Part shown: positions 52,923 to 56,630 of the stretch, piece by piece
Numbering within the stretch: the first letter of the stretch is position 1
How the letters are laid out: each line of letters begins with the position of its first letter
Sequence record: PP355091.1
DNA from: Escherichia phage 235Ecol030PP
Strand: one strand, 5' to 3'
DNA: 64,000 nucleotides
Program-made: the position numbers and the translations under genes
The notes under the pieces: model-generated
The model's input: only the letters and a program-made list of their open reading frames with translations
Databases searched by the model: none
What the model was told of the DNA's origin: nothing

Positions 52923-53186
52923 TTATTTTAACATTCGCCAAATTTTTACTGCTTCGCGACGAGATACTTCTACAGCTCCAAGTTCTACAGCTTTTTGGCG
53001 TCGCCGAGCGTGTAAGTCATAATGTTTAATGCGTTTATCTTGAAACCAAGAACGTTTCATTCCTATTGCTTCTGCCATTTCATGAAGCTCTTCAATATCT
53101 CCATCAGTGAACATATGACAATTTTTAGTTGGATGACCGCGAAGTTTCCATCCATGATTCATTAAAACATCTACGTAAACTGTCAT
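52923..53186 (-). CDS. hypothetical protein, 87 aa
   Basis: ORF. Confidence 0.5.
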   Translation of the reverse strand: MTVYVDVLMNHGWKLRGHPTKNCHMFTDGDIEELHEMAEAIGMKRSWFQDKRIKHYDLHARRRQKAVELGAVEVSRREAVKIWRMLK

Positions 53187-53332
53187 TGATTCTTCTCCAA
53201 ATAAGTTTCGATAATTTTCTGGGCGAGATAAACCGCGTTATCTTCAGTTGCGTCTTCTAAGAAACTTTCAAAACACTCTGAAATTTCTTCTGTGTCAATC
53301 AATTTTTTTACTTCAATTGGTGTAATTTTCAT
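53183..53332 (-). CDS. small acidic protein, ~50 aa (start trimmed)
   Basis: ATG downstream of early promoter 53370-53399. Confidence 0.4.
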   Translation of the reverse strand: MKITPIEVKKLIDTEEISECFESFLEDATEDNAVYLAQKIIETYLEKNQ

Positions 53333-53369: not shown

Positions 53370-53399
53370 ATAGTACCATAAAGCTTTATGCTTGTAAAC
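53370..53399 (-). promoter_or_regulatory. T4-type early promoter with conserved leader
   Basis: GTTTAC-18nt-TGGTACTAT. Confidence 0.7.
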
Positions 53400-53420: not shown

Positions 53421-53448
53421 AAATAAAAAAGGGAGCCCGAAGGCTCCC
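53421..53448 (-). terminator. terminator after the nucleotidyltransferase-fold gene
   Basis: GGGAGCC-UUCG-GGCUCCC hairpin followed by U-rich tract. Confidence 0.65.
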
Positions 53449-53450
53449 TA

Positions 53451-54464
53451 TCATTTATAATAACTTCGGTGGTTTTCAAGATAGACCTTCTCAAGGAAGT
53501 CATCCCAAAAACTCATGTCTACTGTTTTAGGCATACCGTTCTTAGAAGCTTCAGTAGATGCTGCTTCTACTTGATCGACCACATCTTCCAAAAACTCTTG
53601 AACTGTTTTAAATGGATGTTTACCCAACTTCACGTCGAGAATAAATGGAGCATCTTGAAGTGGATAGACTAAGTCACCAGTTTTGTAAATTTCCAATAGT
53701 TGGAGTCCACCACGGCAAGCATGACTCAGAGCTTTCCAGTCAATGCCTTCATTGGCTTCGGCCTTACGAGCACGTTCACCGTATTCAGCATCTAATTTGT
53801 TCAGTGACTGCTTAAGCTCAATAAGAGAAAGCGTTGTCTGATATTTACGACCCAACACAGTGTAGAACATTTGTGGGCCTGTTTTCTCATGATTATGGAA
53901 CACCCATTCACAGAACTCGTTTTCAGGGAGTCTGTGTTTGATATCTTCTACCTTAGTACGACGAAGTCTATCAGGGATTCCTTCTTGATAATCAACCCAC
54001 TGATCGGGGATTTGATTAACTACTTTCAATACATCACGCAATGCGGCCAAACGAGAGCCCTTAACACCATATTTAGAAGCTTGCTTGCGAACATATCCTA
54101 AATAGGATTTCATGTTAGTTGTATAAAACCGTGAACGATTGTCTTGAATAAACTTCCATACATCAGGCAAATCAGATTTAACTACCAGTTCAGGTGGAGT
54201 ATGGAGCATATCCAATGCCACAGTTTCACCATCTGCTGCTAATTTAAAGAAATATTTAAGACTGTATAGTTCATGGTCAATATCATCTTTAGTGTTTTTA
54301 GATGATGTGTTGTTAGTGTTTTTACTCATATGCTCTTTAACATTTCCGATAAGAATATCGCGAGCAGGAGGAACAAAGATTTCTTTAAAATCTACATCAG
54401 ATTCTGGAGTAGAAGTTCCATAAAGATGACTACCAAAATAACTTTTCATTACTGTTTTCATCAT
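53451..54464 (-). CDS. nucleotidyltransferase-fold protein (Pol-beta-like GS...DxD at N-terminus), 337 aa
   Basis: YFGSHLYGTSTPESDVDF; terminator hairpin immediately downstream. Confidence 0.6.
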   Translation of the reverse strand: MMKTVMKSYFGSHLYGTSTPESDVDFKEIFVPPARDILIGNVKEHMSKNTNNTSSKNTKDDIDHELYSLKYFFKLAADGETVALDMLHTPPELVVKSDLPDVWKFIQDNRSRFYTTNMKSYLGYVRKQASKYGVKGSRLAALRDVLKVVNQIPDQWVDYQEGIPDRLRRTKVEDIKHRLPENEFCEWVFHNHEKTGPQMFYTVLGRKYQTTLSLIELKQSLNKLDAEYGERARKAEANEGIDWKALSHACRGGLQLLEIYKTGDLVYPLQDAPFILDVKLGKHPFKTVQEFLEDVVDQVEAASTEASKNGMPKTVDMSFWDDFLEKVYLENHRSYYK

Positions 54465-54946
54465 TCAGCCTTATATTCAATAACAGGACATACTTTAGCT
54501 TTACGAGCTTTTAAAAATTCAACGATAATCGATTTCTTGGGTTGAATAGGCTCAAGTCCATTTTTGATTCGTTCTTCGTTTTGTACAATGAGCTCAATTT
54601 CTTTATTGAGCTTTCGGTCGTTATATTTGTCTAACAACCAGGAAGGACCAATTACCGCCCCAACAGCAATAAGAACCATAACCGATAATGCTAAAATGCC
54701 TATACCAATTGAAGCCGGAACTAATGTCCATAGACTACTAAAGACAAAGAATTTAATTAAAATTTCTTGGCCAATTATTGCGGCACCTGCTAAAGTTGCA
54801 AATCCAACAATTGAAACAGCTAATACCGGGAGAAACGTTTTCCAAAAATAAGCACATAACGTTTTTGGACGATTCCATGTGCTATTAAATGCCGAGTAAA
54901 TTTTATAGTGCCAAGAGTTTTCATTAATAATCATAATTATAATCAT
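54461..54946 (-). CDS. membrane protein, 161 aa
   Basis: 2-3 predicted transmembrane helices. Confidence 0.55.
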   Translation of the reverse strand: MIIIMIINENSWHYKIYSAFNSTWNRPKTLCAYFWKTFLPVLAVSIVGFATLAGAAIIGQEILIKFFVFSSLWTLVPASIGIGILALSVMVLIAVGAVIGPSWLLDKYNDRKLNKEIELIVQNEERIKNGLEPIQPKKSIIVEFLKARKAKVCPVIEYKAE

Positions 54947-55464
54947 CCTTTCATTGAAGGTGTAACAGTTGTTAAATACTTAATCATAGCTTCAGCTTCT
55001 GATTTTGATAATGAAATTTCTCCATTGTTTTGACGAATAGAAATAAAATCCGGATGACGGTCACCACCAGCTTTTAAAACACACATATAAGTATCAGTTT
55101 CGCCTTCAATATTTGAAATGATTGAAGCAGTTCCACATGAATGCGGTTTTTGATAAATCAATACAGCTTTTCTTCCACCGTTTGACTGTTCATAGGCTTT
55201 TAATACATCAAGCAAATCAGTTCTTTTATCAATAGCTAAGATGTTATTTTCATCTTCAATATTAAATCCTTCGGATACTTCATAAAGAGTTACCCATAAA
55301 TCACCGATGTCAATAACAGCATTTACTTTTCCACGGCTTTCAAGAGTATGACAAATTTTCTTGATTTCATCATAACTCATTTTAATAATATCATCTCCTT
55401 GAATAAGGAAGATGTCATTTTTAAATTCAACGCGAATTAAACCACTTCCACTTGAAATAAACAT
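54943..55464 (-). CDS. hypothetical protein, 173 aa (paralog of 55471..56034)
   Basis: shared GFNIE and KSEAEAMIKYLTTVTPSM-type C-terminus. Confidence 0.6.
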   Translation of the reverse strand: MFISSGSGLIRVEFKNDIFLIQGDDIIKMSYDEIKKICHTLESRGKVNAVIDIGDLWVTLYEVSEGFNIEDENNILAIDKRTDLLDVLKAYEQSNGGRKAVLIYQKPHSCGTASIISNIEGETDTYMCVLKAGGDRHPDFISIRQNNGEISLSKSEAEAMIKYLTTVTPSMKG

Positions 55465-55470
55465 ATTTCC

Positions 55471-56034
55471 TCACTTTGAAATCATAGTTGGAATGACAGA
55501 ATCAAGATAAGTCTTTAGTGCAATAGCTTCGTCTTTGGTAAATGTGACAATATGTGCTCGAGAATCATCAATTTGACGAATAGTTAAGACATCTCCTTCT
55601 TCATAGCATTTTGATACATTTAAAACAGTTTCATCATTCTGATCGCACTGATCGCAAGCGTTAGTAATAATAGCATTGCAATTTTTAAGCCATTTTAAAC
55701 TGTGTTTTCTTTCATTAGAATAATAAAAATATTTAATGTAAGTTATAAAATTATCCCAATTATTAATTGATAAGCATATTGACTCGCTTTCAATGTTAAA
55801 TCCTGGGCATAAAGAATAGAAATGAATTTTATGCTCATCATTAATGCTTACAATTTTATCAGTGTAAGGTTTTTCAATTTGGGTTAAATGAATAATTTCG
55901 CTAGGCGTAAAATATAGCATATCGTCTTCTTGCGTCAAACGATACATATTATTTACTTTTTCTATAGCCAATTCACCAAAAAGTGAACTAACTTCTAATA
56001 CTAATCGTTTCATATTAATCCTTTTTATTGGCAC
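55471..56034 (-). CDS. hypothetical protein, 187 aa (paralog of 54943..55464)
   Basis: shared motifs with neighbour. Confidence 0.6.
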   Translation of the reverse strand: MPIKRINMKRLVLEVSSLFGELAIEKVNNMYRLTQEDDMLYFTPSEIIHLTQIEKPYTDKIVSINDEHKIHFYSLCPGFNIESESICLSINNWDNFITYIKYFYYSNERKHSLKWLKNCNAIITNACDQCDQNDETVLNVSKCYEEGDVLTIRQIDDSRAHIVTFTKDEAIALKTYLDSVIPTMISK

Positions 56035-56293
56035 GAATTTGTTCTAAAATTTTAGAATATTCCTTTGTATCAGATTTACGTACAATTGATACACTATAAG
56101 GCATACTATCGGTGTCTTTTATAAAGCGTTCCAAATGACACTCTAACAAAATTTCTGGATTATAAATCGTGTACATCAAATTACCTGTTGCTCCACGATA
56201 TTGGCAGATTTCTACTGATTGAACACCATTCCATAATTTTGTTAAAACTAAATCACCTACTTCTAATTTAGGAAAGCCCATGTTATTCACCAA
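56015..56293 (-). CDS. hypothetical protein, 92 aa
   Basis: ORF. Confidence 0.5.
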   Translation of the reverse strand: MVNNMGFPKLEVGDLVLTKLWNGVQSVEICQYRGATGNLMYTIYNPEILLECHLERFIKDTDSMPYSVSIVRKSDTKEYSKILEQIRANKKD

Positions 56294-56468
56294 TTAAAGT
56301 TTCAATATAAGAATCAAGATTTACTTTAGCTTCTTCCATAAGAGTTTTGTATTTAATCTTGTTAGCATGTCCGGAGAAAGCTGATTCATCAATAATTGTT
56401 GATGTATGAACAGCTTTACTATACGTCTCAATTAATTCTCTTAATTTAAAAGCCTGCTCACTTGTCAT
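56283..56468 (-). CDS. small helical protein, 61 aa (family member)
   Basis: N-terminal M.SEQ..KL..LI pattern shared with four other small ORFs. Confidence 0.5.
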   Translation of the reverse strand: MTSEQAFKLRELIETYSKAVHTSTIIDESAFSGHANKIKYKTLMEEAKVNLDSYIETLIGE

Positions 56469-56600: not shown

Positions 56601-56630
56601 ACTATACCATAACCTTGCCAACTTGTAAAC
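56601..56630 (-). promoter_or_regulatory. T4-type early promoter
   Basis: GTTTAC-18nt-TGGTATAGT. Confidence 0.65.

Follow-up and report, generated by a model that had tools for sequence, protein, structure and literature searches.

Gene content and transcription of the locus

The window analyzed is a 64,000-nucleotide stretch of Escherichia phage 235Ecol030PP (PP355091.1), a T4-like phage (Tequatrovirus). Positions 53451 to 56034 are filled by four co-directional genes on the minus strand, which encode, in the order of reading, two paralogous proteins, a membrane protein with two or three transmembrane (TM) segments, and a 337-aa nucleotidyltransferase (NTase). Table 1 lists these genes, the flanking features, and the domain layout of the NTase. 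The 337-aa protein and T4 NrdC.11 (NP_049709) are orthologs, 95% identical over 337 aa, and the gene holds the same genomic position as in T4, between nrdC.10 and mobD.1. Two differences set the locus apart from that of T4. Upstream, T4 has the HNH homing endonuclease gene mobD, whereas this phage has the second mobD.1 paralog and the membrane protein gene in the slot. Downstream, ahead of nrdC.10, this phage carries an inserted 49-aa ORF and DUF4031 gene.

Table 1. Features of the nrdC.11 locus (positions in the window) and domain layout of NrdC.11 (residues)
Feature	Position	Strand	Basis
Promoter-like site just past the terminator, TTTACA-17-TACTAT with TG	53370..53398	-	consensus scan
Intrinsic terminator: 8-bp G+C-rich stem, UUCG loop, U-run	53430..53449	-	directly after nrdC.11
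nrdC.11 ortholog, 337 aa, RlaP-family Pol-beta NTase	53451..54464	-	PF10127
Membrane protein, 161 aa, phrog_944 family, 2-3 TM	54461..54946	-	hydropathy, phrog match, family alignment
Second MobD.1 paralog, 173 aa, T4_y05I family	54943..55464	-	PF24449 + PF24448
mobD.1 ortholog, 187-aa ORF from GTG, T4_y05I family	55471..56034	-	Pfam; PD112 annotation
Phage Tudor-domain protein	56015-56293	-	PF24144; tightly spaced with mobD.1 (PD112 annotation)
Gene for 61-aa protein, upstream	56283-56468	-	ORF list; tight spacing in PD112 annotation
Candidate sigma-70 / T4-early-type promoter, TTTACA-17-TATAGT with TG	56601..56629	-	consensus scan, 10/12 matches
NrdC.11: NTase domain (G11-S12, D23xD25, D61/D63, D85)	residues ~1-115
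NrdC.11: long helix	residues 119-150
NrdC.11: beta-rich insert	residues ~155-210
NrdC.11: helical C-terminal domain	residues 214-336

A preliminary description of this DNA had placed the four genes on one transcript closed by a strong terminator, and both points are borne out. Two junctions consist of an ATGA shared by a stop and a start codon, one at 54943-54946 between the genes for the 173-aa and membrane proteins and one at 54461-54464 between those for the membrane protein and the NTase, and no terminator-like site was found on the gene strand within the four-gene block. The terminator, read on the minus strand from 53449 to 53430, has the form AGGGAGCC-UUCG-GGCUCCCU followed by UUUUUUAUUU and begins one base past the nrdC.11 stop codon; its free energy is -16.4 kcal/mol, with z = -4.25 against shuffles. 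By its match to consensus, the candidate site at 56601..56629 is the best promoter-like site upstream of the four-gene unit, and the Tudor-domain and 61-aa genes (56015..56468) probably represent the promoter-proximal part of the unit. The block would then be co-transcribed from an early-type promoter and ended by the terminator, beyond which the second promoter-like site is a candidate to drive the next unit, consisting of the 49-aa ORF, the DUF4031 gene and nrdC.10. The most likely start of mobD.1 is the ATG at 56013, which gives a protein of 180 aa as annotated in phage PD112. Rfam and tRNA scans across the whole window returned no matches, and neither did NCBIfam and PADLOC searches with six proteins.

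The two proteins called paralogs in the preliminary description are indeed a pair, with 28% identity (E 3e-11) and shared Pfam domains. The N-terminal and C-terminal domains of T4_y05I, PF24449 and PF24448, match the 173-aa protein with E 1.8e-33 and 2.1e-23 and the 187-aa protein with E 4.2e-40 and 1.8e-23, and both proteins match phrog_1502. The 187-aa protein is 84% identical to T4 MobD.1. Its 173-aa paralog occurs in 473 phage records and is missing from T4, SP21535 and Mosigvirus. Pfam labels the y05I family a putative transcription factor; an AF2 model of a y05I paralog, built from an 18-sequence alignment, reached a pLDDT of 51.7, too poor for a fold search. The y05I paralogs have no demonstrable link to NrdC.11, and together with the TM protein they make up a variable accessory set in the hyperplastic region.

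NrdC.11 as a divergent long form of RlaP

The N-terminus of the 337-aa protein, MMKTVMKSYFGSHLYGTSTPESDVDF, contains G11-S12, ten further residues, and D23-V-D25, that is, GS-x10-DxD. The Pol-beta-type signature reported earlier from the letters alone is therefore present, and it is no chance occurrence, since the Pfam search matches PF10127 (RlaP) at 43.9 bits against a cutoff of 23 (E 3e-11). This match spans only residues 7-136 of the protein, against profile positions 23-143 of 249. PF10127 is carried by all of the best 120 database homologs of the protein, which also matches phrog_388, 'nucleotidyltransferase', with E 3e-137. Across 141 homologs with 34-55% identity, G11 and S12 are invariant, and D23, D25, D61, D63 and D85 are each at least 90% conserved. 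An hhalign comparison of the NrdC.11 clade with canonical short RlaP, in which only 86 columns were aligned, gave 93.5% probability and E 2e-7 and matched GS to GS and DxD to DxD. In the alignment to canonical RlaP, D61 and D63 fall beside the invariant D82, and D85 stands opposite the invariant E104; from these positions, D61, D63 and D85 are the candidates for the third metal ligand.

Recognition of this gene as an NTase predates our analysis, and the find is real and largely ordinary. The preliminary description could recall no assigned function for such a gene in T-even phages; T4 nrdC.11 was in fact recognized as a COG3541 NTase in 2006 (PMC1524935) and falls under RlaP in Pfam. As later papers describe, Burroughs & Aravind defined the family in 2016 under the name RlaP, for 'RNA ligase-associating Pol-beta'. 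A 2025 biochemical and structural study names T4 NrdC.11 as an RlaP and places it in a PF10127 similarity network, while still labelling it 'unknown function' (bioRxiv 10.64898/2025.12.29.696909). In that network T4 NrdC.11 belongs to cluster 5 and Pseudomonas RlaP to cluster 1a. The two share the Pfam family and the GS/DxD/third-Asp NTase core, and NrdC.11 probably also shares the plan of an N-terminal NTase domain followed by a C-terminal helical domain; in the crystal structure of the P. fluorescens enzyme, PfRlaP, the last helix of the latter packs onto the NTase domain (bioRxiv 10.64898/2025.12.29.696909). NrdC.11 is longer, at about 337 aa against about 260 aa for canonical short RlaPs, and only its N-terminal half can be aligned with them. 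In its clade about 55 extra residues form a beta-rich insert and the C-terminal domain has diverged, so substrate or product could differ from those of Pseudomonas RlaP.

Sequence searches of the PDB, with the single protein and with the 141-sequence profile, found no match. Foldseek against the PDB returned weak, superfamily-level matches only. The closest solved structure is HalB, a DNA-synthesizing NTase, a point against the RNA-repair role proposed below. Kanamycin nucleotidyltransferase (KNT), which acts on small-molecule substrates, and the JCSG NTase-like structure 3c18 show 8-11% identity to NrdC.11 and share no genomic context with it. The C-terminal domain of NrdC.11 is HEPN-like by fold.

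Neighborhoods and distribution of NrdC.11 homologs

Cellular genomes supplied 79 full-length NrdC.11 homologs (32-54% identity), which represent 58 lineages. An RNA-repair gene lies within 3.5 kb of the homolog in 20 of the 58. A canonical RlaP is encoded directly downstream in 14 lineages, RtcB nearby in five, a Pnkp kinase-phosphatase-ligase in four, Ro60/TROVE in four, and RtcA in two. An RNA ligase is found near the homolog in nine of the 58 cellular lineages; the phage nrdC.11 operon contains none. In Roseobacter phage DSS3P8, the NrdC.11 homolog lies inside a tRNA gene cluster.

Counted by genus in the phage collection, NrdC.11 occurs in 640 Escherichia, 286 Klebsiella, 83 Shigella, 75 Aeromonas, 69 Acinetobacter and 56 Enterobacter phages, and the corresponding counts for Rnl1, in the same order, are 638, 287, 83, 77, 69 and 56, with Pnkp similar. 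The physical neighbors of nrdC.11 are patchier (for Escherichia and Klebsiella, 524 and 158 for the membrane protein, 557 and 149 for NrdC.10). The genus distribution of NrdC.11 tracks Rnl1 and Pnkp, not its neighbors, a co-distribution that could reflect only the conservation of all three across Straboviridae. NrdC.10, the conserved AAA ATPase encoded downstream, was considered as a partner and rejected; it is missing from KVP40, from Slopekvirus and from all cellular loci.

The membrane protein family phrog_944

Strong hydrophobic stretches occur in the 161-aa protein at about residues 37-59 and 75-105, with a weaker one between them (Kyte-Doolittle scale, 19-residue window, values up to 2.7). 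What had been described as a multi-TM protein is thus a membrane protein, with the count revised to two or three TM segments. Members of phrog_944 share an N-terminal motif, NSWHY...PKTLCxYFW, and a basic C-terminal motif, LKAKKxKxCPxIE, and W12, C31, Y33, K151 and C153 are invariant. The gene has matches in 1329 phage records. Distant members of the family came from tblastn and an IMG/VR pattern scan, while a word-based search returned close T4-like relatives only.

Co-occurrence speaks against an obligate pairing of membrane protein and NTase in either direction. T4 lacks the membrane gene, with the mobD endonuclease in its slot, and has kept nrdC.11; no membrane gene lies beside the NrdC.11 homologs of KVP40 or Slopekvirus, or beside any of the 79 cellular homologs. 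RlaP, in turn, is not nearby in 25 of the 33 lineages that have the membrane gene. A repair enzyme is encoded downstream on the same strand in 11 of the 33 and close upstream in none, and in 21 of them the 10 kb of sequence analyzed contains no repair enzyme. Three large unannotated genes downstream of membrane protein homologs were compared with the RlaP profile and are unrelated to it, and PHROGs and Pfam yielded nothing relevant for them.

A proposed role in RNA-end repair

The analysis shows which family NrdC.11 belongs to, its fold, the conservation of its catalytic residues, how its operon is built, and the RNA-repair genes around its cellular homologs. These results can be read together with what has been reported for Pseudomonas RlaP. 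Enzymes from P. fluorescens and P. aeruginosa, the only two for which the activity has been shown, add one or two NMPs at an RNA 3'-OH, with Mn2+ preferred (bioRxiv 10.64898/2025.12.29.696909). Among E. coli macromolecules, Pseudomonas RlaP labelled RNA only, not DNA or protein; it prefers mimics of cleaved tRNA, and it improves aminoacylation of tRNA missing one nucleotide (bioRxiv 10.64898/2025.12.29.696909). For NrdC.11 itself we infer, by analogy with these enzymes, both nucleotide addition at an RNA 3'-OH and the in vivo substrate. We think it reasonably probable that NrdC.11 is an RlaP-type RNA-repair NTase that restores nucleotides on cleaved and trimmed tRNA before repair by Pnkp and Rnl1, in a counter-defense role.

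By this model, the GS/DxD/D active site would bind two divalent metals and an NTP, and NrdC.11 would extend the 3'-OH of broken RNA by one or two nucleotides without a template. Its partners in trans would be the end-healing and end-sealing enzymes Pnkp (pseT) and RNA ligase 1 (rnlA), whose genes lie at other sites of the genome, in T4 about 80 kb from nrdC.11; in this NrdC.11 differs from Pseudomonas RlaP, whose gene lies in an rtcBA operon. The targets would be tRNAs cut and trimmed by host anticodon nucleases, as in wobble-nucleotide excision of the RloC type, and their restoration would keep translation of phage proteins going. The proposed partner pathway is the T4 repair by Pnkp and Rnl1 of tRNA cleaved by PrrC, which has the same phyletic distribution as NrdC.11 and the same logic of reversing anticodon-nuclease damage. 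After healing and sealing by Pnkp and Rnl1 a nucleotide that was lost is still missing, and putting it back is the step that NrdC.11 would supply. Excision of the wobble nucleotide by RloC has been proposed to defeat T4 Pnk/Rnl1 repair (PMC2610378), and replacement of such nucleotides in phages has been predicted as a role of RlaP (PMC7824862). With this mechanism NrdC.11 would be a counter-defense RNA-repair factor and not a signaling enzyme. The earlier suggestion of an uncharacterized enzymatic or counter-defense function is plausible in its counter-defense part, while 'uncharacterized' gives way to a known family. T4 remains viable on laboratory hosts after deletion of nrdC.11-mobD.3 (PMC9825161), which fits an accessory role and lends the model no positive support.

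The classic T4 model system of tRNA repair encodes no RlaP other than NrdC.11. If it does restore wobble-excised nucleotides, this would answer the question, raised in 2008, of whether repair-competent phages overcome damage of the RloC type, and T4 would open the RlaP family, so far with only a proposed role in vivo, to genetic study.

Alternative interpretations

The membrane protein, translationally coupled to NrdC.11, is perhaps an accessory factor. Under a stronger version it serves the RNA-end repair enzymes of phages specifically and forms a true two-gene RNA-repair module with nrdC.11; its cytoplasmic N-terminal and C-terminal segments and basic tail would tether or regulate RlaP or RNA ligases, or feed substrate to them, at the inner membrane. 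The ATGA overlap with nrdC.11 is consistent with this, and so is the position of the membrane gene zero to three genes upstream of RlaP in eight T4-like lineage clusters. Other phages show the gene beside different enzymes. In Pakpunavirus the gene next downstream encodes an Rnl1-family ligase (PF09511), which is part of a cassette with an AAA_33 kinase-like protein and a Metallophos_2 phosphoesterase. In Aeromonas phage 25 the immediate downstream neighbor is an Rnl2-type RNA ligase gene (PF09414 plus a PHA02142 OB domain), and RlaP is encoded elsewhere in that group. In phiR1-37 the membrane gene lies two genes upstream of an NAD-dependent DNA ligase. The orientation is constant in the 11 lineages, with the enzyme downstream and never close upstream. 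A rough, post hoc expectation for chance adjacency is about 1% per lineage. Against the module, the 21 lineages without a repair enzyme in 10 kb have neighbors that include VWA, HATPase, primase-helicase and dNMP kinase genes, and T4 and the cellular NrdC.11-like loci do without the membrane gene. Inheritance of a single arrangement probably accounts for the T4-like cases, which leaves only about four independent events, and the category 'end-repair enzyme' was set after the data had been seen. On this balance we regard a dedicated module as unlikely.

The only possibly new point at this locus is that the phrog_944 membrane protein also adjoins RNA ligases in unrelated phages. That phrog_944 is a membrane-anchored component of RNA-end repair, recruited independently beside RlaP (T4-like phages), Rnl1 (Pakpunavirus) and an Rnl2-type ligase (Aeromonas phages), is a reading of gene order that we put forward with clear doubt. 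If it were true, tRNA repair in infection would be organized at, or controlled from, the inner membrane.

It is improbable that the NTase modifies another kind of target, whether a small molecule or antibiotic in the manner of KNT or Lnu, a protein through MNT-type AMPylation of a HEPN partner, or the 3' ends of phage tRNAs in a CCA-like maturation. The HEPN-like C-terminal fold and the homolog within the tRNA cluster of phage DSS3P8 point that way, and the insert and diverged C-terminal domain of the clade leave room for a changed substrate. The exclusive labelling of RNA by Pseudomonas RlaP speaks against it, as do cellular neighbors that belong to RNA repair and not to antibiotic resistance or toxin-antitoxin systems. 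Where the gene of a T-even tRNA does not encode CCA, the tRNA relies on the CCA-adding enzyme of the host, a point against such an activity in the phage.

The preliminary description had taken the NTase and membrane protein for a possible nucleotide-signaling module. A parallel is Hailong, which, as described in PMC13434031, pairs a transmembrane HalA with the NTase HalB, a protein of about 217 aa described as a tetramer making tyrosine-primed poly-dA to keep the HalA channel closed. A Hailong- or CBASS-like pair, in which an oligo- or cyclic nucleotide product gates or activates the membrane protein, or a mimic or decoy of such a host system, shares with halA-halB the order of membrane protein gene before NTase gene, but it is very improbable here: NrdC.11 has no detectable sequence or profile similarity to HalB (PDB 9dbh, 9dbj) or any other PDB chain, neither protein matches PADLOC at E <= 0.01 (2023 database, CD-NTase models included), the membrane protein is unrelated to HalA, small, with a tail of only about 55 residues, and dispensable, the pairing is non-obligate, characterized RlaP members act on RNA ends, and cellular homologs sit with RtcB, Pnkp, RtcA, Ro60 or a second RlaP. 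The supposedly uncharacterized NTase beside the membrane protein belongs to a known family and lies in a variable accessory region; the pair is not a new signaling or defense module.

Public annotations of the genes discussed here, among them 'thioredoxin', 'MobD molybdopterin-guanine dinucleotide biosynthesis protein' and 'helicase loader', are widely wrong.

The 337-residue protein and the RlaP family

The 337-aa protein of the block, the NrdC.11 ortholog, almost certainly belongs to the RlaP family. It matches PF10127 (RlaP, "RNA repair pathway DNA polymerase beta family") above threshold over residues 7-136 only, and phrog_388 ("nucleotidyltransferase") spans its full length. A word-indexed search gave 2899 close matches, with PF10127 present in 120 of 120 among the matches listed; clustering of homologs at 50% left 3508 cluster representatives. 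The N-terminus, MMKTVMKSYFGSHLYGTSTPESDVDF, reads GS-x10-DxD, bearing out the nucleotidyltransferase (NTase) signature that the preliminary description had seen there. Invariant positions among 141 aligned homologs (34-55% identity) are G11, S12, Y132, H248, R251 and P268. Conserved in at least 90% are N57, Q128, K131, R138, a DWKA motif and the acidic residues D23, D25, D61, D63 and D85.

No PDB chain related to the protein was found by sequence or profile search. An AlphaFold2 model built from the 141-homolog alignment is confident (pLDDT 94.4, pTM 0.83); in it, a predicted alpha/beta NTase domain at the N-terminus is followed by a long helix, then by a beta-rich insert (about 155-210) and finally by a C-terminal domain of helices. 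The top-ranked structural neighbors of the model are all Pol-beta superfamily NTases (Hailong HalB, score 9.6; 3c18, 9.0; kanamycin NTase, 7.4), with HEPN-like helical domains also matched by the predicted C-terminal half. Profile-profile comparison with canonical short RlaPs (about 266 aa) gives 93.5% probability, placing GS and DxD in register and D61/D63 beside the invariant Asp of canonical RlaP. The short proteins lack about 70 residues relative to NrdC.11 and do not align past the NTase domain. NrdC.11 thus stands as a divergent "long" RlaP branch.

The central gene of the block is thus a member of an already known family. The remark that such a gene is not known to have an assigned function in T-even phages does not hold: nrdC.11 was identified as a COG3541 nucleotidyltransferase in 2006 (PMC1524935), and a December 2025 preprint (bioRxiv 10.64898/2025.12.29.696909) places T4 NrdC.11 in its RlaP similarity network, labelled as of unknown function. 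RlaP NTases have been predicted to replace nucleotides lost from cleaved RNAs ahead of ligation, and in jumbo phages their distribution tracks RNA ligases (PMC7824862). The preprint characterizes two Pseudomonas RlaPs, which extend an RNA 3'-OH by one or two NMPs (or dNMPs) and do not act on DNA or protein. They favor Mn2+ and, in a mimic of cleaved tRNA, the 5' half, and they partially rescue aminoacylation of a tRNA missing one anticodon-loop nucleotide.

Cellular homologs and proposed role

Scanning a single genome for each prokaryotic species turned up 156 relatives, of which the best 80 were taken (32-54% identity, near full length; 58 lineages). ORFs within 3.5 kb were called and clustered, and recurrent clusters were annotated with Pfam. 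A canonical short RlaP lies immediately downstream of the NrdC.11-like gene in 14 of the 58 lineages from these best 80 of 156. Other repair genes within 3.5 kb are RtcB (5 lineages), a kinase-phosphatase-ligase Pnkp (4), Ro60/TROVE (4) and RtcA (2). At least one of these RNA-repair genes is found in 20/58 lineages and an RNA ligase in 9/58, counts that are probably underestimates, since 27 of the 80 loci span less than 7 kb. The membrane protein, y05I, NrdC.10, DUF4031 and Tudor proteins were all absent within 3.5 kb in the 58 lineages.

The tandem pairs of these 14 lineages (among cellular loci L076-L147, e.g. L125:5001-6777) consist of a "long" RlaP of about 326 aa, then a "short" RlaP of about 266 aa matching PF10127 over its full length (E 4e-73). 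Stop and start codons often overlap, and Pnkp, RtcB or RtcA is sometimes close by. Judged by sequence, the two are divergent RlaP paralogs.

By analogy, NrdC.11 would add untemplated nucleotides to damaged RNA 3' ends, and this addition would support tRNA repair by Pnkp and Rnl1; we regard the application of this mechanism to NrdC.11 as reasonably probable. The lesion made by RloC, which cuts out the wobble nucleotide, has been proposed to overcome repair by T4 Pnk/Rnl1 (PMC2610378). T4 survives deletion of nrdC.11-mobD.3 (PMC9825161). Of the preliminary proposal of an uncharacterised enzymatic or counter-defence function, counter-defence is retained as the most likely role, within a family, RlaP, that is already known. 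What remains of value is the T4 enzyme, as a candidate RNA-end NTase, and the possible association of the membrane protein with end-repair enzymes.

NrdC.11 is present in 1565 of 50,697 phage records. Its counts by host genus match those of Rnl1 almost exactly, lie close to those of Pnkp and are unlike those of its physical neighbors, a coarse co-distribution that any gene conserved throughout Straboviridae would show.

Phage records containing each protein, by host genus
Protein	Escherichia	Klebsiella	Shigella	Aeromonas	Acinetobacter	Enterobacter
NrdC.11	640	286	83	75	69	56
Rnl1	638	287	83	77	69	56
Pnkp	679	394	84	77	70	57
Membrane protein	524	158	76	62	47	36
NrdC.10	557	149	76	48	72	36

In Roseobacter phage DSS3P8 (L008:5001-6014), a homolog at 28% identity sits within a tRNA gene cluster, with Met, Pro and Met tRNAs upstream and Ala, Val, Val, Ala, Asn and Arg tRNAs downstream. 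In the window itself, neither a tRNA scan nor Rfam at gathering threshold gave any match (1-64000).

The membrane protein and the signalling reading

The pairing of an NTase with a membrane protein had been read as a signalling module. Hailong, described as such a pair (PMC13434031), offers a parallel, HalB being the top structural match to the predicted fold. We consider it very unlikely to hold here: sequence and profile searches gave no relation to HalB, the NTase and the membrane gene also occur apart, and the setting of the family is RNA repair. No protein of the block matches any defence-system model, which together with the cellular neighborhoods argues against a signalling module.

The membrane protein family, phrog_944, spans 1329 phage records and has conserved motifs outside its membrane spans (invariant W12, C31, Y33, K151 and C153). 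We grouped 67 membrane-gene loci from GenBank and IMG/VR into 33 lineage clusters at 50% identity. RlaP lies at +1 to +4 downstream in 8 of the 33, all T4-like. In Pakpunavirus (Pseudomonas), the membrane gene is followed at +1 by an RNA ligase of the Rnl1 family, which has a Metallophos_2 phosphoesterase and an AAA_33 kinase-like protein as its neighbors, a set that looks like a heal-and-seal cassette. The +1 gene in Aeromonas phage 25 is an Rnl2-type RNA ligase, RlaP lying elsewhere in that group, and the +2 gene in phiR1-37 is an NAD-dependent DNA ligase (loci L009:3001-4337, L012:3504-5099 and L011:3501-6500). Altogether 11/33 lineages have a same-strand end-repair enzyme downstream, a category set post hoc; one further lineage has a distant Rnl2-like gene 12 genes upstream, and 21/33 have unrelated neighbors. 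By chance, adjacency would be expected in about 1% of independent lineages, which makes the roughly four independent events suggestive. Even so, a functional link between membrane protein and end-repair enzymes, as read from gene order, seems rather unlikely.

The arrangement varies among phages with nrdC.11. SP21535 and Mosigvirus have one y05I, the membrane gene and the NTase; the membrane gene lies 3-4 genes upstream in Klebsiella Roth78 and Erwinia FBB1, and two genes upstream in Acinetobacter PhaR5, with an annotated terminator between. KVP40 and Slopekvirus have no membrane gene near their homolog, and T4 lacks it, with mobD upstream of nrdC.11.

Organization and mosaicism of the block

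The feature is confirmed as real and correctly described: minus-strand ORFs of 337, 161, 173 and 187 aa fill 53451-56034. ATGA overlaps join the 173-aa stop to the 161-aa start and the 161-aa stop to the 337-aa start. The terminator also stands, as a hairpin one base past the 337-aa stop with an 8-bp G+C-rich stem, UUCG loop and U-run (-16.4 kcal/mol, z = -4.25). The "multi-TM" protein is a membrane protein by its hydrophobic spans, though with only 2-3 of them. The paralogs are 28% identical (E 3e-11) and share T4_y05I N- and C-terminal domains. The y05I family is restricted to a subset of Tevenvirinae (473 phage records for the 173-aa type), and its AF2 model is too poor in quality for interpretation. 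For the 187-aa ORF, the probable start is the ATG at 56013; this would yield the 180-aa product annotated in phage PD112.

Features of the block and its flanks
Feature	Coordinates	Strand	Remark
NrdC.10 AAA-type ATPase, 328 aa	51885-52871	-	downstream of nrdC.11
DUF4031 gene (87 aa) and 49-aa ORF (phrog_6888)	52923-53332	-	between nrdC.11 and nrdC.10
Early-type promoter-like site	53398-53370	-	beyond hairpin; would serve 49-aa ORF and DUF4031
337-aa ORF (nrdC.11 ortholog)	53451-54464	-	RlaP-family NTase (near-certain)
161-aa ORF	54461-54946	-	2-3 hydrophobic spans, phrog_944
Phage Tudor-domain protein	56015-56293	-	PF24144, E 2.7e-40; directly upstream of mobD.1, probably same transcription unit
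61-aa ORF	56283-56468	-	small gene; with Tudor gene, between first paralog and next site
Promoter-like site	56629-56601		top-ranked upstream of block

Many Tequatrovirus genomes match the region at 94-96% identity; T4 NrdC.11 is 95% identical to the 337-aa protein and T4 MobD.1 84% to the 187-aa protein. T4 has the order mobD.1, mobD (HNH homing endonuclease), nrdC.11, nrdC.10; 235Ecol030PP lacks mobD and carries the second y05I paralog and membrane gene in that slot, and its 49-aa ORF and DUF4031 gene stand where T4 has nothing. On sequence comparison the block is a mosaic. Shigella phage SP21535 shares the NTase (99.7%) and membrane allele (99.4%) and lacks the second paralog; Escherichia phage PD112 shares the NTase (99.4%) and second paralog (96%), with its membrane allele at 58%. 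The membrane allele is 99% identical to those of SP21535 and UGKSEcP2, about 80% to Mosigvirus and only 55-58% to most Tequatrovirus, the flanking NTase being 99% in both kinds of phage. Presence of the second paralog varies independently of this allele.

NrdC.10 (phrog_1250; 1312 phage records) has only weak Pfam matches (AAA_14, AAA_22, nSTAND3). It does not adjoin the KVP40, Slopekvirus or cellular NrdC.11 homologs, and is kept downstream of nrdC.11 in phages ranging from Tequatrovirus through to the Acinetobacter Twarogvirinae (65-99% identity). In GenBank, NrdC.11 and NrdC.10 are often mislabelled "thioredoxin," MobD.1 and MobD.4 [quoted passage not shown] and the 61-aa ORF "helicase loader."
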